Source of the DNA: a virus
Reading direction: 5' to 3' (one strand)
IMG/VR virus record: IMGVR_UViG_3300030043_000002
Length of the DNA stretch: 40,438 nucleotides
The translations under genes and the position numbers were made by a program. Shown piece after piece: positions 4,555-35,868 of this stretch; position 1 is the stretch's first letter; every line of letters starts with the position of its first letter. The notes beneath the pieces were generated by a model. It was given only the letters and a program-made list of their open reading frames with translations. It was not told where the DNA came from and did no database searches.

Positions 4555-5202
4555 ATGACAGTTCCGACACAAGAAAATCAAACACAGGCTAACCAGCCTA
4601 CCGACAAAGAGCTAAATTTTCGTGCGCTAGAAAACAGATACAAGGCACAACTCGAACAAGAACGTCAAGCACGTTTAGAAGCAGAACAAAAGATTCAACA
4701 ATACTCACAGAGACCACAAGACGAAGAAGAAGACACAGAGCCGTATGTAGACCACAAAAAACTTAATAGAACCCTTGCAAAGCATGGTCAAACTACTCAA
4801 AGCGAAATCCAAAAAGCCATGGAATATGCAAAGCAAGCAGCTAAAGAGGAGTTAAAACAAGAGATGTGGCTAGAAAACAATCCAGACTTCTACGAGGTTC
4901 TTAAACATGCAGACAAATTTGCAGACAGATCTCCAAAACTTGCGAACAGCATTCTTAGAATGCCTGAAGGATTCGAGAGACAAAAACTTGTCTACGAGAA
5001 TATCAAAGAACTTGGAATTGATAAGCCAGCTGCAAAAATCCCTACAATCCAAGACAAAATAGATTCCAATCGTAGAAGTCCATACTATCAGCCATCTGGC
5101 GTAGGAACCTCACCGTATTCCTCGCAATCAGATTTTAGCGCATCTGGACAGAAGACAGCCTATGAAAAAATGAAAGCATTACAAAAAAACCTAAATATTT
5201 AA
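4555..5202 (+). CDS. scaffolding protein (putative)
   Basis: 215 aa, Q/E/K-rich with predicted coiled-coil (QLEQERQARLEAEQKIQQ), positioned between portal and capsid genes. Confidence 0.5.
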   Translation: MTVPTQENQTQANQPTDKELNFRALENRYKAQLEQERQARLEAEQKIQQYSQRPQDEEEDTEPYVDHKKLNRTLAKHGQTTQSEIQKAMEYAKQAAKEELKQEMWLENNPDFYEVLKHADKFADRSPKLANSILRMPEGFERQKLVYENIKELGIDKPAAKIPTIQDKIDSNRRSPYYQPSGVGTSPYSSQSDFSASGQKTAYEKMKALQKNLNI

Positions 5203-5640: not shown

Positions 5641-5885
5641 GGAATTTTAACACTAGATGGATATGCCCAATAATCACAACATTTGATATCAAATTGAATA
5701 TCTTCCAATGGATTATCTGTGTAAAAATCTACTGGATAATATTCACCATGATCTATTTTATCAGTGACAAGATTGTGAGCATGACAATCAAAGTTAATAA
5801 TTCCAACGGCCTTGTCTGAAGTATTAATAACAAGAATATTTGCTCCTACGATAGGCATTTTATCTTCAAATCTATGCCATTTCAT
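5634..5885 (-). CDS. DUF551-like protein
   Basis: 83 aa from the ATG at 5885, which forms an ATGA overlap with the upstream stop. MKWHRFEDKMP...ILV...DYWAYP fits the DUF551 outline (W..v.d.lP...vlv...W.P.P). Confidence 0.55.
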   Translation of the reverse strand: MKWHRFEDKMPIVGANILVINTSDKAVGIINFDCHAHNLVTDKIDHGEYYPVDFYTDNPLEDIQFDIKCCDYWAYPSSVKIPK

Positions 5886-6931
5886 ATATGTTTCCACGTT
5901 TTTTTATTTATTATATTCATTACAGCTTCTTTTTTTAATCCAAAAATTTTCATTAACTCATCGATTGAGTATATATCTTCATAATAAAATTCTCTCAAAG
6001 ATAAAACATCGCAATTCTTTAATCTTGTAAAATGTGATAATTCTCCTTTTGGCACGTTTTCATAACGTTTACATCCACATGATGAAGTTTTAAATTCATT
6101 TCCATTCATTCTTTTGATTTTTTTTTTACATATACATGTAAGCTCTAAATACAAATGTTTTTTTTTAAAACCGACTATACCACTAATTTTTAAATATTTA
6201 TATTTAATACCTATTTTTTTGTGTGCTTTTGAAATTATTAAACTTCTTTTATCACAACCACAAGAAAAATTATTATTCTTTATTTCACTGGCACTTCTAG
6301 AAAATTCTTTTCCGCATTCACATAACAAATTCCATAAACTGTCACCTTTCCTTTCCAGAAAAGTTATCATTCCAATTTTTTTCCCGGGATAATTCCCTTT
6401 AATACAATTTTTGCACCACTTACGAGAAGATGAAATGCAAGATTTTGTTATTGAAAACTCATAATTACATACAATGCATCTAACTATTAACTTTGTCTTA
6501 TTTTTAATACCGTTAATATCCAAAACTTCCAAATTTTGATATGTTTTTCCTATATGATATTTTGTTTTTTTTCTTAAAGAACATCGTTGGCAACCTGGTT
6601 TTTTTATTGCATAAAATTGCCTTTTAGAAATCTTACCACATTTACATTCGCATACATATTTATTACGTTTAGAATTATAATCTATTTCTATAACCTTACG
6701 ATCGCAAAATATATCACCGATATTACATAAGGGAACAAACCTAGTTTTTCTTGGATATTTGCTAATACATTGCTTACAACATTTATTTTTAATGGGGGCG
6801 TCTTTATCTTTTAATATTCCGCAACTACATTGGCATATATATGGCCTACGTCTTCCGTGAATAATATCTTTGACAATCCAATCATTAATCTTATCGCCAA
6901 TTTTATATTTACTTGGAGTGCTCATCTTCAA
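5882..6931 (-). CDS. multi-zinc-ribbon DNA-binding protein, homing-endonuclease-like but lacking a nuclease domain
   Basis: 349 aa with five tandem modules of the form IG....V....Y.C.C.CG...(12-16)...C..C, the same module as the N-terminus of the HNH protein at 7798..8448. The C-terminus IDELMKIFGLKKEAVMNIINKKTWKHI resembles the HTH tail of HNH and GIY-YIG homing endonucleases. I found no HNH, GIY-YIG or LAGLIDADG motif. Confidence 0.6.
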   Translation of the reverse strand: MKMSTPSKYKIGDKINDWIVKDIIHGRRRPYICQCSCGILKDKDAPIKNKCCKQCISKYPRKTRFVPLCNIGDIFCDRKVIEIDYNSKRNKYVCECKCGKISKRQFYAIKKPGCQRCSLRKKTKYHIGKTYQNLEVLDINGIKNKTKLIVRCIVCNYEFSITKSCISSSRKWCKNCIKGNYPGKKIGMITFLERKGDSLWNLLCECGKEFSRSASEIKNNNFSCGCDKRSLIISKAHKKIGIKYKYLKISGIVGFKKKHLYLELTCICKKKIKRMNGNEFKTSSCGCKRYENVPKGELSHFTRLKNCDVLSLREFYYEDIYSIDELMKIFGLKKEAVMNIINKKTWKHI

Positions 6932-7652
6932 TCCTATTATGATTTTTAAAGTTATAGATTGAGATGAGAAGTGAATACCAATCTTCGGATGTTCTTTGAG
7001 GTTTTAAATCAAACCATCTAAGATCAAGTTTCTTGAAAAATAATGCTGAATCGAATCCAGTCGTTTTTAAAAGCCAACGTAAAGCCCGTGTAAAGTTATG
7101 ATTTGTAAACATGCTATGTGGTTTGATTCTTTTGTCTTTGGTATAGGAAACAAAATCGAAGAAAAAACACATCACATTTTCTGAATCGTGATTTTGAGGA
7201 AATTTAAACTTACCTGTTTTTAAGAATTCCAATATATTAGAACTTACCACTCCTAGAATTAGGGTTAAAAGCGCTTTAGGCTTCAATCCAGAGGATTTCA
7301 ACATATCCTTAAGCTGAATATACTCAACCTTCTTTTCTTTCACTGCAAAGTAATTTATATAGTTTTCGACTTCAAAAGACTTTTGGTTGACATTGCAATC
7401 AATAAGGTGATCTTCAGCCACAACATCAGATTTTATATAGAATATTTCACATGCAAGTTCTTTGGCAGCTTGTAATCTATGTTGTCCGTCTATCACTTCA
7501 AAGTTTTGATTCACTATAATTGGATGTAAATTGAGATGATTACTTTTTTCGATAGATTGCTTTAATTTCTTCAAATGATATTTATCAATAGGCCTATTAC
7601 CACTCAATATGTTAAATATATTGTAATCATTTGTTTTTTGAACTTGTTCCAT
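6909..7652 (-). CDS. ParB/Srx-fold N-terminal domain protein (DGQHR type)
   Basis: 247 aa. The stretch FNILSGNRPIDKYHLKKLKQSIEKSNHLNLHPIIVNQNFEVIDGQHRLQAAKEL matches the ParB-like nuclease domain pattern (NR...L..si...g...Pi.v....iDG.HRl.Aa). Confidence 0.65.
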   Translation of the reverse strand: MEQVQKTNDYNIFNILSGNRPIDKYHLKKLKQSIEKSNHLNLHPIIVNQNFEVIDGQHRLQAAKELACEIFYIKSDVVAEDHLIDCNVNQKSFEVENYINYFAVKEKKVEYIQLKDMLKSSGLKPKALLTLILGVVSSNILEFLKTGKFKFPQNHDSENVMCFFFDFVSYTKDKRIKPHSMFTNHNFTRALRWLLKTTGFDSALFFKKLDLRWFDLKPQRTSEDWYSLLISIYNFKNHNRIEDEHSK

Positions 7653-7681
7653 TTCGTATTCCTTTTTTGTTTAGATAAACC

Positions 7682-7711
7682 ATTATAAAAATGTTCAAAG
7701 ATTTTTGTCCA
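7682..7711 (-). promoter_or_regulatory. candidate sigma70-like promoter for the ParB-like operon
   Basis: On the minus strand, TGGACA is followed by an 18-nt spacer and TATAAT, about 30 nt upstream of the ATG at 7652. Confidence 0.3.
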
Positions 7712-7797
7712 TGTGAAATAAAGATTATGTTGACAATATAAACATTTAATTTGATATATTGAAATCACGTAAGTACAAACGTTATGTGCGCTTCGCG

Positions 7798-8448
7798 TTA
7801 AACATCCTCTAACTGTAGATATAAGTTATAAATAAACTCTATCCCTTTTCTTTCCTCAACTTTTCTGAATTTATCCCTATTCATTCCTAGAACTTCCATT
7901 AAATGTGTGTTCTTAATCTTCTTACCGTTTATTTCGTGAAAACGCACAGAACGCCGATTATTCGCCTGCGTTTTAATATCAGTCCATCTGCAATTTTCTT
8001 TGCAGTAGTTGCCGTCATTATCAATTCTATCTAATTGCATGCCGTCAGGTCTTTCTCCCATATCTTTAAGAAAAACATCAAATTCATTCCATTCAACACA
8101 AACAGAGATTCCTCTTCCACCATAGTTATGGTAATTGACATCATTAGGATCATTGCATCTTTGTCGCATTGCAACCCATATAGCATATATTCTATCTCTT
8201 CCCTTTGTTCTAGATGCCATACCATGTTTATAGGCCCAATGATCTTTGCCTTTCTTGGTATGTGCTTTAGCAGAACAGCATTTACATGGATTATTTCTAG
8301 TTCTCAAATAAGAACCGTTCAGAACAACAATATCACCACAATCACATTGAACTTTGTACATAATGTAACCATTTTTTCTTTCTGCAAGTTCTTTTACTAC
8401 AGTTCTTGTTCCGAAACGGGAACCGATTTCAATTTTTTTAATATACAT
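7798..8448 (-). CDS. free-standing HNH-family homing endonuclease
   Basis: 216 aa with an N-terminal zinc ribbon (YKVQCDCG...CKCC), IYAIWVAMRQRC...YGGRGISVCVEW, and LDRIDNDGNYCKENCRWTDIKTQANNRR. This is the common phage IDR-type HNH signature. Confidence 0.8.
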   Translation of the reverse strand: MYIKKIEIGSRFGTRTVVKELAERKNGYIMYKVQCDCGDIVVLNGSYLRTRNNPCKCCSAKAHTKKGKDHWAYKHGMASRTKGRDRIYAIWVAMRQRCNDPNDVNYHNYGGRGISVCVEWNEFDVFLKDMGERPDGMQLDRIDNDGNYCKENCRWTDIKTQANNRRSVRFHEINGKKIKNTHLMEVLGMNRDKFRKVEERKGIEFIYNLYLQLEDV

Positions 8449-8650
8449 AAATAAATTCCTTTAATATTATTAAGATTCGTTAGCTAAACGTTAAATAGCA
8501 TTGCGTCAATATGGTTTCGCAGACCAGTTATTCGGGTTATTCGGATAGAAAAACAACGTACAAAAGGTTCGTTACCATTCAACAACGAATATCTCTATTG
8601 TATAGAACTGCATATTATTATGCAATTCAAAACTTTAAGAGGTTATCTAA

Positions 8651-8743
8651 ATGAGTATAACAACAACAGGCCAGTTAGGACCAATGATCCTACAGTCTCT
8701 TGCTCCTGCTATGCTTTACGTGCCTACACCAATGATGAACTAT
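8651..8743 (+). CDS. major capsid protein, exon 1 (31 codons)
   Basis: SD aagagg lies upstream of the ATG at 8651. Product is MSITTTGQLGPMILQSLAPAMLYVPTPMMNY. The unspliced frame stops at TAG 8747..8749, and the rest of the capsid ORF resumes about 200 nt downstream. Confidence 0.65.
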
Positions 8744-8954
8744 AAATAGATGTAGTTATAAAACCGTCGCTGATTGACTCGGAAGCCCGACAGGGTAACG
8801 AGGGGCAAGTTTAAATACAGCCTGAACGACTGAGCGCGATGGGCTCGAAAGAGTATGCAACAGTCTGAACCGTAAAAATAAATAAAATTACGGAGGAGAA
8901 TCCGAAGAGGTTTTCCCGCTTATAATATATTGTAAGTCATAAAGTAACAGAAAG
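8744..8954 (+). mobile_element. putative ORF-less group I intron interrupting the capsid gene
   Basis: - P1: exon end aactat (8738..8743) pairs with gtagtt (8752..8757), ending in a U8743.G8752 wobble at the proposed 5' splice site.
- 3' splice site: G8954 precedes in-frame exon 2, and a short P10 is possible (att 8955..8957 with gat 8749..8751).
- Structure: the interior is visibly GC-richer than its flanks and contains a GAAA-tetraloop hairpin (8843..8854), a gactg/cagtc stem (8828..8832 with 8861..8865) and a ccgtaa/ttacgg hairpin (8870..8893).
- Caveat: I could not assign the P3/P7 catalytic core by eye. Confidence 0.55.
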
Positions 8955-9830
8955 ATTACGGTATGTGATAAAATATCCATGCCTCCAAATGGTGGAACAA
9001 CAGCACGTTTTATGCGTCCAAGAGCACTAACACCCCCAACGGTTCAACTTGGTAATTCAGGCATTGATCCGCCTGCGCAAGTACCTCAAAGGGACATAAT
9101 CGATGCGCAAATGGCTTTTTTTGGAACAGGCTGTATTATAAACGAACAAGTAATACTGCAAGATCAAGAAGGCGTTTTGGCATGGGTGTCAGAGCGTTTA
9201 GCAGTAGCGATGCGCCAAGCAGAGGATTTGATTTTACGGGACTATATTGTTTCCGCAGCATCAGAAATTAACGCTGGTGGTGGTTCTAATGGCGACAATC
9301 CAACAAACTTAGGTTTGTCAGATTTCTCATTAGTAGCTACTACACTTGATACTAACAATGCCTACAAGTTTATGACAGGTATTGAAGGTATGGATAGATT
9401 CGGTACAGGTCCAGTAAGAAGCTCATATTTTATGTTGTCTTCTACTGAACTACAAACCGATTTTGATAGTTTAGTTGGTCAAGGTGTTTTGAACAACTGG
9501 AACTATCCAACAAATTCCTCTGCATTGCCTTCTGAGTGGGGTTCCGTGTTTAATACACGTATCCTAACAAGCTCTGAAGCTCCAGTTGCTAGAGGTGTTA
9601 GTGCTAACGGTCAAGACGTTTATTACAACACTGTGTTGGGTAAACAAGGGATCACACACATTAACCAAGATGGATTCTCAATGAATCTAATTTACCGTGA
9701 CCCATACTACAGTGGTATGTTGGCCCAAAATGCCACTCTTGCTGTTAAGTTTGCTCAAGCGCAAGCCCTAACACAAGATACAGCTATCAGAAACCTTTTA
9801 TGTACTCGTTTGAGTTCATTAAACTACTAG
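8955..9830 (+). CDS. major capsid protein, exon 2 (HK97-fold type)
   Basis: The frame is open from 8943. The ORF-track start at ATG 8979 has no SD and would remove the conserved N-terminal region. The stretch ...KISMPPNGGTTARFMRPRAL fits the p.nsG.t..f.R motif of podovirus-type capsid proteins. The spliced product would be 322 aa. Confidence 0.75.
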   Translation: MTVCDKISMPPNGGTTARFMRPRALTPPTVQLGNSGIDPPAQVPQRDIIDAQMAFFGTGCIINEQVILQDQEGVLAWVSERLAVAMRQAEDLILRDYIVSAASEINAGGGSNGDNPTNLGLSDFSLVATTLDTNNAYKFMTGIEGMDRFGTGPVRSSYFMLSSTELQTDFDSLVGQGVLNNWNYPTNSSALPSEWGSVFNTRILTSSEAPVARGVSANGQDVYYNTVLGKQGITHINQDGFSMNLIYRDPYYSGMLAQNATLAVKFAQAQALTQDTAIRNLLCTRLSSLNY

Positions 9831-9840
9831 GAGATTTCTC

Positions 9841-10992
9841 ATGGCTGAATATTCAAGATTAGCAACAGGTATGGTAACATCAACGGGTGGAAACACTGCT
9901 GTTGTATTGCCTTTTATTCCTGATTTTATTGAGATTTACAACTCGACGCGTGCAACGGCAGCTTCTGGCGTAACACGTGCTTGGTGGACATCTAATATGG
10001 GCGAAGGAGCTGCATTTTTAACAACTACTGGCGCAGGTCCAGCGGATGGAACAAGTTTTGTGACTGCAACAACAGGAACAGGATTTTCAACATTCCGTGC
10101 TGCATTAGCTTTGCAATATGGTCCAACTGTATTGCTTGGTGCTTCTGGTGGTATAACTAAGAATGCCGGAGCTCCGGTTATTACAACAACTGCTGCCCAT
10201 GGTCTAGTTCCAGGTAATGTAGTAGTATTTTCGAACCTTTATGAAACCACTACTACAGGTATGCAACAAATTGCTGGTATTCCTTTCGTAGTTGTAACGG
10301 TTCCAAGTACAACAACATTTACAATTAACTGGGATACAAGCGGTACTAATTACACTGCTATTGCAACTGGTGGTTTGAATACTAATGCTTCATTTAAGAA
10401 AGTATTGTATCCATTCCTTTACGCACCAAGTGCGACATATATTAGCGGTTTGGCTGCTGGTTCAGGTGTATTTTCTAATGCAACTGTAGTTACAACAACT
10501 GCTCCGCATAATTTCAAAATTGGTCAAGAAGTAGGATTTCATATCCCTGCTATTTGGGGTCCAGTTCAGTTAAATGAATTGCCAAATCTGGTTAGACCAG
10601 GTTCACCAATCTATCATTATGTACGTGCAGTAACTGAGACAACATTTACTATTGATGTGGTATTTTCAACACTTACAGCTTACGTGGCTAATCAGCCATT
10701 TGGAAGCTTTATAGGTCAGAAATTCCCTGTCGTTGTACCTGCTGGAGACGTTAACACTGGTGGAGATCAGATCTTCGCTAATTCTGTGTTGTATCCTTCA
10801 CCGCAACTGTACAATGGTTTTAGTAATGCCCTTACTTCAACTATTAATGGTCCTGCGATTCAGGGTGCATTTGTGAATAATACTTTAATGGGATTTGTAA
10901 TAGGTGCTGCTGCCGCTGGAACAGCTGCGGACACCATTTATTGGAGAGCCCAGATGAGTGATATTGTGTTACCTGTAACACAGTACAGATAG
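9841..10992 (+). CDS. virion structural protein with two FCCH-like beta-barrel modules (decoration or tail component)
   Basis: 383 aa, immediately after the capsid gene, with SD aggag. Modules lie at about 10153..10374 and 10474..10686. A strong hairpin follows. Confidence 0.6.
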   Translation: MAEYSRLATGMVTSTGGNTAVVLPFIPDFIEIYNSTRATAASGVTRAWWTSNMGEGAAFLTTTGAGPADGTSFVTATTGTGFSTFRAALALQYGPTVLLGASGGITKNAGAPVITTTAAHGLVPGNVVVFSNLYETTTTGMQQIAGIPFVVVTVPSTTTFTINWDTSGTNYTAIATGGLNTNASFKKVLYPFLYAPSATYISGLAAGSGVFSNATVVTTTAPHNFKIGQEVGFHIPAIWGPVQLNELPNLVRPGSPIYHYVRAVTETTFTIDVVFSTLTAYVANQPFGSFIGQKFPVVVPAGDVNTGGDQIFANSVLYPSPQLYNGFSNALTSTINGPAIQGAFVNNTLMGFVIGAAAAGTAADTIYWRAQMSDIVLPVTQYR

Positions 10993-35622: not shown

Positions 35623-35868
35623 ATGCTGCAGAATCCCAATCCAATTGTAAAGAATTTCTTGCTCGCTGCCACTTTTTGCTTCTTTTTTTCCATCTTCATT
35701 GGTATTGTTTTGTTTTTTACGGGATGCTCGTACATCCCTGATCTAGCTAAAGACGTAGAAGACTATGCAACAGATGACGCAATTAAAATCGAAGTGTCAC
35801 GCGAAGCTCTTAGCGAAAATCATAACATCGATATAGATATAAAAGTTAACAAAACGCAGGGAAAATAG
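35623..35868 (+). CDS. small lipoprotein
   Basis: 81 aa from the ATG at 35623 (SD aggag). It has a hydrophobic signal and the lipobox FFTGC (LFFTG-C). Confidence 0.55.
   Translation: MLQNPNPIVKNFLLAATFCFFFSIFIGIVLFFTGCSYIPDLAKDVEDYATDDAIKIEVSREALSENHNIDIDIKVNKTQGK

Follow-up and report, generated by a model that had tools for sequence, protein, structure and literature searches.

The major capsid gene in IMG/VR virus record IMGVR_UViG_3300030043_000002 is split after its 31st codon by a 211-nt insert without an open reading frame (ORF), located at positions 8744..8954 of the plus strand, which we describe here as a probable group I intron. It occurs in a stretch of 40,438 nucleotides, hereafter the window, together with a free-standing gene for an HNH endonuclease that lies upstream of the capsid gene on the opposite strand. 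The arrangement is very probably best explained by self-splicing of the capsid pre-mRNA through the group I pathway, combined with homing of the intron in trans, driven by the HNH protein.

Exon 1 of the major capsid gene (8651..8743, plus strand; 31 codons, MSITTTGQLGPMILQSLAPAMLYVPTPMMNY) begins with an ATG located eight bases 3' of the Shine–Dalgarno (SD) sequence AAGAGG (8637–8642), and its ORF ends at TAG 8747–8749. The initial annotation, made from the sequence of the window alone, had correctly recognized the SD sequence and the stop codon but counted 31 codons in this ORF; there are 32, the final one (Lys) falling within the insert. Exon 2 (8955..9830, plus strand) encodes residues 32–322 and carries the stop codon. 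As first noted in the same annotation, the downstream capsid frame is open from 8943 and lacks an SD sequence: it follows TAA 8940–8942, and no SD sequence is found upstream of its first ATG at 8979. Gene callers annotate 8979–9830 alone (283 aa, P0116), and on one contig a 32-aa ORF was called as well. Joining 8743 to 8955 produces a 322-aa protein, which aligns end to end and without gaps with more than 100 uninterrupted proteins of 321–325 aa (88–95% identity), bearing out the continuous capsid protein proposed initially. Several of the uninterrupted homologs carry the label 'N4-gp56 family major capsid protein'. Whether a capsid profile would cross the junction had been suggested as a check, and it does: the match of the spliced protein to phrog_1357 (major head protein; residues 27–274) extends over it. 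Moreover, the spliced junction reproduces the homolog sequence exactly, with P(T/M)MNY followed directly by ITVCDK.

In the alignment, exon 1 corresponds to residues 1–31 of the more than 100 homologs, among which residues 13–39 are 90–100% conserved. Comparison of exon 1 with 44 uninterrupted homologs gives a mean of 17.2 synonymous and 2.5 non-synonymous codon changes, and 26 of its 93 nucleotides differ from the homologs (28% divergence). Its constraint is at least as strong as that of the start of exon 2. Judged by these substitutions, exon 1 is under purifying selection, implying that it is still translated within a working protein. As read from the homologs, the locus is one capsid gene, interrupted by a 211-nt insert. 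With 100% identity, this interrupted gene recurs on 14 contigs, which come from several independent samples, and is thus no assembly artefact; since some of these contigs are genomes of ~40 kb, the identical arrangement also argues for a viable, circulating phage. A tblastn search of 50,697 phage records with the spliced protein gave no match, so that the phage is without a sequenced close relative among isolates.

The same region could instead be read as two separate genes or as a broken gene, in which the capsid protein would start at Met 8979 (283 aa), the 32-codon ORF would be a remnant or a small gene, and the 211 nt would represent a structured intergenic or regulatory element or a dead insertion in a defective phage. 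Such a reading matches the annotation by gene callers, including the 32-aa ORF on one contig, and is in line with the absence of an Rfam match and of a ligated exon junction in the contigs searched (see below). However, a 283-aa protein would lose the highly conserved residues 13–39, and translation from 8979 would proceed without an SD sequence. Furthermore, exon 1 is strongly selected despite its nucleotide divergence, the arrangement recurs unchanged on 14 contigs from several samples, and the insert belongs to an RNA family whose guides are specific to their splice sites. We therefore consider separate or broken genes very improbable.

Alignment at the DNA level with the uninterrupted relative L001 reveals a single clean insertion of 211 nt at 8744–8954. 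Its sole boundary ambiguity is one A, and one of the two possible registers gives an exon-terminal U and an insert-terminal G, such that the intron follows U8743 and ends in omega G8954. The insert has stop codons in all frames and no ORF of at least 25 aa on the sense strand. Its GC content (41.2%) is higher than that of the upstream intergenic region (30.7%) and the window average (35.9%), but not than that of exon 1 (43.0%) or exon 2 (41.6%), contrary to the initial impression that it is GC-richer than its flanks. P1 (8738..8757, plus strand) is formed by the exon sequence AACUAU (8738–8743) and the guide GUAGUU (8752–8757), placing the U8743.G8752 wobble at the 5' splice site. The intervening loop L1 (8744–8751) holds the in-frame stop codon UAG 8747–8749, and a candidate P10 of 3 bp can form between GAU 8749–8751 and AUU 8955–8957. 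This P1, the G preceding exon 2 and the possible P10 had all been pointed out in the initial annotation and are all present.

Searching IMG/VR with the capsid protein gave 80 loci, eight of which carry an insert in the same gene, sharing its core with the window insert. The insertions fall at four sites: after nt 30 of the gene (site D, L074), after nt 65 (site A, L084–87), after nt 86 (site B, L078 and L080) and after nt 93 (site C, the window and L082). For six distinct insert copies representing the four sites, the protein-optimal junction always leaves a U at the end of the exon and a G at the end of the insert; the terminal G is found in L082, L078, L080, L084/85 and L074, the junctions of which were set independently by protein homology. 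Just 5' of the core, each guide is complementary to its own exon, resulting in five different exon/guide pairs (AACUAU/GUAGUU, CAACCAU/GUGGUUG, CAACGAU/GUCGUUG, CGAUGCU/GGUAUCG and CUUGGGU/GCUCAAG), and the U.G at the cut is retained across all four sites. P10 likewise varies by site (GAU/AUU, UUC/GAA, AUAU/AUAU) and is weak or absent in L082 and L074. Across the whole family, P1 is most often 7 bp long with a 9-nt loop and reaches at least 6 bp in 86% of copies, compared to 47% in shuffled controls. Going by these pairings, the site-matched guides and P10 behave as P1 and P10 of a group I intron should, and we know of no alternative that explains them.

Exon-matched guides also bear on programmed translational bypassing of the T4 gene 60 type, whereby the ribosome would take off at AAA 8744–8746, land at AAG 8952–8954 and resume at AUU 8955, no splicing being involved. 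In favour of such a mechanism, a Lys codon stands directly before the stop, exon 2 is immediately preceded by another that nearly matches it, and the gap contains hairpins. The product, however, would contain an extra Lys (NYK-ITV) that is found in no homolog, and the hop would span 205 nt, the gap in gene 60 being ~4 times shorter. Moreover, the take-off and landing codons are not matched at the three other sites, and in L078 the hop would replace a conserved Met codon. Bypassing further leaves unexplained the covarying P3/P7 pseudoknot described below, the exon-specific guides and the terminal G, and it does not account for family members that carry homing endonuclease ORFs. We regard it as barely credible.

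The sense strand of the insert folds with z = −3.07 relative to shuffled controls, compared to z = −0.83 for the antisense strand. We drew the helix layout from the window copy alone and then projected it onto a structure-blind MAFFT alignment of 78 family copies that are <80% identical; environmental copies of the same phage, being 100% identical, are of no use for covariation. All elements are on the plus strand. Only six nucleotides, AUAAAA, separate P1 from P3, in which CCGUCGC 8764–8770 pairs with GCGAUGG 8836–8842 and six of the seven pairs show double compensatory changes. The invariant, 7-nt J3/4 UGAUUGA (8771–8777) leads into P4 (8778–8781/8799–8802; 4 bp, double changes in the third pair), which is connected to P5 (8785–8788/8793–8796; double changes in two of four pairs) by J4/5 GAA on the 5' side and by J5/4 AA before the P4 3' strand. 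P6 (8803–8806/8820–8823; double changes in three of four pairs) is followed by J6/7 GAAC and by P7, in which GACUG 8828–8832 pairs with CAGUC 8861–8865; P7 is pseudoknotted with P3 and contains the predicted guanosine-binding site. Within the span of P7, J7/3 AGC precedes the P3 3' strand, which ends at 8842 and directly abuts the GAAA-capped P8 hairpin GCUC-GAAA-GAGU (8843–8854), and J8/7 AUGCAA (8855–8860) completes the core. The peripheral 3' domain (8870..8954) comprises P9 (CCGUAA 8870–8875/UUACGG 8888–8893; double changes in all six pairs), P9.1 (8895–8902/8909–8916, with the loop CGAAGA) and P9.2 (8918–8925/8930–8937), as in the minimum free energy fold, and the 3' tail CAUAAAGUAACAGAAAG ending in omega G8954; every pair listed for this domain is canonical or G.U. 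The GAAA hairpin and the GACUG/CAGUC and CCGUAA/UUACGG stems had been picked out initially at these same positions, whereas P3, P7 and P8 had been left unassigned and can now be placed.

The P3–P9 model, including the P3/P7 pseudoknot, pairs 95.1% of the alignment cells, as opposed to 38–47% when partners are slid by 1–3 columns. Changes on both sides are seen in 23 of the 34 pairs; double-change cells number 523 versus 56–106 in the slid controls, and the covariation score is 0.537 versus ~0.1. Covariation supports both arms of the proposed P3/P7 pseudoknot; at the last P7 pair, for instance, 45 copies have A-U and 30 have G-C. Consistent with this layout, RNAalifold run on 55 non-capsid copies independently gives P3, P4, P5, P6 and P8.

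Family membership was assessed with a covariance model, R1, constructed from family members residing in other genes, with the capsid-gene copies left out. R1 matches the window at 8758–8898 with 129.4 bits (E ~3e-28) and all other capsid copies with 70–128 bits, and gives no match on intron-less loci. A second match in the window, at 35783–35854 (11 bits, E = 0.82), lacks the core motif and was therefore taken as noise. R1 scores are lower (94 and 70 bits) for L074 and L080, which form a sub-branch with a bulged base in P7 (G(C)AGUA/UACUC in L074, G(U)AGCA/UGCUC in L080), the difference between the two being compensatory. Homologous inserts, exon-matched guides, a covarying core and the R1 score together support the assignment of the insert to the group I introns, as initially suggested. 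The extra P7.1/P7.2 elements between P3' and P8 (usually accompanied by P2) that define subgroup IA2 are lacking in the window intron; given the absence of P2 and P7.1/P7.2, the 4-bp P4 and the 7-nt J3/4, we file it as group I and not as IA2.

The HNH gene (7798..8448, minus strand; 216 aa) was identified by its match to phrog_374 (E = 1.3e-57); the ORF has no match in Pfam or NCBIfam and owes its name to PHROGs alone. It is divergent from the capsid gene, its start lying 203 nt away from the start codon of the capsid gene and ~295 nt away from where the intron is inserted, in the layout scaffold gene, HNH gene (minus strand) and capsid gene with intron. Of the 81 related capsid loci, 8 combine the intron core with an HNH homolog, 73 have neither and none is discordant. 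The probability of such co-occurrence is naively ~3e-11, and ~5e-8 with near-identical loci collapsed. At the eight intron loci, the HNH homolog has the same position and the same orientation. HNH proteins of the site C pair share 71% identity, those of the site B pair 63%, and those of sites A and D 68%, compared to 32–45% between groups. Intron similarity also clusters partly by insertion site, much like the HNH proteins, and our claim is therefore limited to intron and endonuclease diverging as pairs and does not extend to HNH relatedness tracking the site independently of the intron lineage. The site B proteins, encoded on the minus strand (L078 933–1313 and L080 925–1332), have a swapped domain order, with the HNH domain first and the Cys-rich 'FG.W.V...C.C.CG' domain last, whereas the Cys-rich domain comes first in the proteins of sites A, C and D.

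An ORF-less intron accompanied by a nearby free-standing endonuclease gene with which it is co-inherited is the hallmark of trans homing, and this combination is what we find here. The linkage thus suggests trans (collaborative) homing, with the HNH protein as the putative homing endonuclease, and the HNH gene probably spreads the intron. An alternative is that the intron is a genuine group I intron but that the HNH gene is an unrelated neighbour, a free-standing homing element in its own right inserted into a hot spot between the scaffold and capsid genes, the intron having spread by other routes such as reverse splicing or recombination. Indeed, the scaffold–capsid spacer is variable (168–1294 nt) and accepts other cargo, such as ParB-like genes; an HNH homolog is nearby in just ~9 of ~120 non-capsid intron loci, and other members of the family use LAGLIDADG or HNH genes encoded within the intron. 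On the other hand, the co-occurrence across the 81 capsid loci is perfect, the similarity of the HNH proteins follows the insertion site of the intron, and the divergent HNH–intron layout recurs in L197 and L094. Overall, we consider an unrelated HNH gene rather unlikely.

Several results weigh against self-splicing combined with HNH-driven homing, or against parts of it. Searched with Rfam 15, the whole window has no match at the gathering score, and the region 8600–9050 (451 nt) at E ≤ 10 has only a chance snoRNA match (E = 2.5). The group I model RF00028, recommended initially as a check, does not match this copy even at E ≤ 10, nor its relatives at the gathering score and at E ≤ 1. In a positive control, RF00028 recovers the three ORF-less introns of phage Twort with 64–101 bits, although it misses the ORF-bearing T4 td intron as well; given the Twort result, the non-detection is a property of the family and not a general blind spot for phage introns. 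R1 matches the Twort introns at the RF00028 positions, if weakly (23.4, 20.4 and 16.1 bits; E = 0.0015–0.07). Lack of a covariance-model match was part of what the initial annotation would have taken as refutation, and for Rfam this formally applies. Since a model built from relatives in other genes matches both the window, strongly, and the Twort introns, which are proven by experiment, we do not count the Rfam miss as a refutation. The family is also atypical in having neither P2 nor P7.1/P7.2, a P4 of just 4 bp and an invariant J3/4 of 7 nt; J3/4 is usually ~3 nt long. A full-length capsid protein 100% identical to the spliced product is missing from the protein database, and two scans of metagenome and metatranscriptome contigs recovered neither the ligated exon junction of this strain nor an intron-less allele of it. 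As for the HNH gene, its link to the intron is correlative, the eight positive loci amount to about 5–6 independent lineages, and at a few intron-less loci the upstream sequence is too short to exclude an HNH gene.

The RF00028 failure is also the sole reason to raise a different class of element, namely, a group II intron, an archaeal bulge-helix-bulge intron, an intein or a transposon such as a miniature inverted-repeat transposable element, for which nothing specific speaks. With 211 nt and no match to any Rfam family, the insert falls far short of the size of a group II intron, and the stop codons in all frames are at odds with an intein. The structure is strand-specific, and the junctions show neither terminal inverted repeats nor a target-site duplication. 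In topology and in splice-site rules the insert conforms to group I, and the probability of another class is negligible.

Under group I splicing, the end of exon 1 (AACUAU) and the guide GUAGUU would form P1 in the pre-mRNA, and the core would fold, P3/P7 pseudoknot included, into P3-P4-P5-P6 and P7-P3'-P8, with P9, P9.1 and P9.2 coming next. A free guanosine bound in P7 is expected to attack after U8743, at the U.G wobble, whereupon the terminal G8954 would take the same P7 pocket. The freed 3'-OH of exon 1 would then attack after G8954, with the short P10 holding exon 2, to give AAC-UAU joined to AUU-ACG and the continuous 322-aa capsid protein. On unspliced RNA, translation would halt at UAG 8747 in the P1 loop. 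Both the catalysis and its dependence on GTP are predictions from the sequence. The HNH protein (7798–8448), for its part, is predicted to cleave the intron-less capsid alleles that co-infecting relatives carry, close to codons 10–31; repair from intron-bearing genomes would copy the HNH gene and the intron together, and the intron, by disrupting the target, would protect its own genome. Its target and cleavage specificity are likewise predictions.

The very large size of the intron family and its tight linkage to the HNH gene are the two aspects missed by the initial annotation. The window contains a single copy of the core 18-mer CTGATTGACTYGGAAGCC, which is also present in >120 IMG/VR contigs (among the matches listed) and in 66 species-representative bacterial genomes or metagenome-assembled genomes from many phyla (L212–L277). 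The carriers include cultured Noviherbaspirillum, Paraburkholderia, Pandoraea, Pseudomonas karstica, Pectobacterium and Polaromonas JS666, as well as bins labelled Methanobacterium, Heimdallarchaeota and Parachlamydiaceae. These 66 occurrences probably represent prophages or mis-binned phage contigs. The 18-mer is also found in a few GenBank phages, where it splits genes that lack an intron annotation. In Roseobacter phage CRP-118 (L208, OR420741.1 35056–35455), it is flanked by two 'ribonucleotide reductase' coding sequences (CDSs), and in a spring-water podovirus (L209, MW202674.1 16872–17088) by two 'P22 coat protein' CDSs, neither record having an intron feature. A BLASTN search of the 50,697 phage records with the insert returned just short chance matches. 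Other copies reside in head-protein genes of three PHROG families, ribonucleotide reductase genes, one terminase gene and one portal gene.

ORF-bearing members of the family carry, in the P6 loop (L6), either LAGLIDADG ORFs, often antisense, or an HNH ORF. The L6 insertions of L091, L109, L156, L178, L181, L189 and L204 encode antisense LAGLIDADG-type proteins (...LAGI[IV]DGEG...), and that of L201 encodes an HNH protein on the sense strand. Two or three copies of the family may also lie close together (L197 12800–14300, L207 11019–12513, L139 4741–5229, L170, L187 and L191). In L197 and L207, several copies are located within one capsid gene. The two copies in L139 are 318 nt apart and share their contig with L023, the capsid gene of which is uninterrupted, so that they lie in another gene.

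RF00028 and the models derived from GISSD under-represent phage introns (PMC11878797). Hits of RF00028 and GenBank annotation served as seeds for the newest intron database (PMC11835236), from which the family is therefore probably missing. A wider proposal, which we put forward tentatively and which may well turn out otherwise, is that the insert stands for a structural lineage of minimal group I ribozymes not catalogued so far, which includes competing intron–HNH pairs and sister introns with ORFs in L6. The lineage may be abundant in environmental phages and prophages while staying invisible to pipelines and databases seeded from RF00028. In a single phage lineage, co-evolving pairs of an ORF-less intron and an HNH gene may compete for four sites in a 65-nt stretch of the capsid gene and, together with the sisters carrying sense HNH or antisense LAGLIDADG genes in L6, may form a natural series of endonuclease genes becoming intron-borne.

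The surroundings of the capsid gene are variable. Between a scaffold-like gene (4555–5202) and the capsid gene, the window has three minus-strand genes (5882–8448), namely, an ORF of 349 aa, another of 247 aa that weakly matches GmrSD_N/ParB_N, and the HNH gene. The same spacer measures just 168–1294 nt in intron-less relatives and thus looks like a hot spot for cargo insertion. Immediately downstream of the capsid gene, a 383-aa ORF (9841–10992) with weak matches to E1_FCCH and an endosialidase beta-barrel is conserved in position among relatives (39–56% identity). tRNA genes are found near the scaffold–HNH–capsid region in related phages (L074 310–382 and L139 1501–1572), and none is present in the window.

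Twort, JCL1032 (cited in PMC6669764) and the Jug phages already provide examples of group I introns in phage genes that are essential or expressed late. What is new, at the level of the family, is a large environmental lineage missed by Rfam, its minimal core architecture, its strict linkage to a free-standing HNH gene and the use of four alternative sites in one capsid gene. For annotation, the consequence is the truncated 283-aa capsid call in the window, and a model of the R1 type would repair many such calls in viromes. With respect to RNA biology, the family offers natural group I ribozymes of ~210 nt with rich covariation, a small scaffold for ribozyme studies, and adds to the concern that the variety among phage introns exceeds current models (PMC11878797). 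It further provides a tractable natural system for collaborative homing and for the entry of endonuclease genes into introns. For the phage itself, RNA catalysis would become a condition for making its most abundant virion protein.

Among known systems, the Jug jumbo phages have group I introns of ~206 nt in terL and nrdD, the splicing of which was confirmed by metatranscriptome reads (PMC12880540). Like the window intron, they are compact, come from metagenome-assembled phages, split essential genes and have stand-alone HNH genes nearby, many in their case. Unlike the window family, which escapes RF00028, they were found by existing subtype covariance models; phage type and habitat also differ. 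Trans homing, in which an ORF-less intron has its insertion site, or a sequence close to it, targeted by a free-standing endonuclease, has been described in two phage systems (PMC3984707, PMC2790892), namely, the S-PM2 psbA intron with F-CphI and T4 mobE with the nrdB intron/I-TevIII, each pair being inherited jointly (PMC3984707, PMC2790892, PMC6083498). As in those systems, where the intron may also be ORF-defective, an ORF-less intron resides here in a conserved phage gene with a free-standing endonuclease gene close by. In contrast to them, the host gene encodes the capsid protein, and the endonuclease is a phrog_374 HNH protein with a predicted cleavage specificity, not an Endo VII-like one such as F-CphI. 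We found no description, for the known trans-homing cases, of a single gene with four alternative sites in a 65-nt stretch, each with a matched HNH variant.

The closest structural counterparts are the three Twort orf142 introns, I1–I3 (IA2), and the T4 td intron, which are self-splicing introns, as predicted for the window insert, in protein-coding genes of phages, those of Twort in a late gene. The window family differs from them in lacking P2 and P7.1/P7.2, the latter being a hallmark of IA introns (PMC3984707), and in its 4-bp P4 and invariant 7-nt J3/4; it is also shorter, with 211 nt for the window intron and ~225–290 nt for the Twort matches. Nevertheless, the J6/7–P7 and P7'–J7/9 segments are nearly identical: J6/7–P7 reads AACGACUA in Twort and T4 td (from L211 and L210) and GAACGACUG here, and P7'–J7/9 reads UAGUCUGAAC in Twort, UAGUCUG in T4 td and CAGUCUGAAC here, where guanosine binding is predicted. 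Furthermore, the 3' tail, of the form GUAACA-N4-5-G, matches those of Twort and T4 td, and the window intron and the Twort introns have in common the hairpins P9, P9.1 and P9.2.

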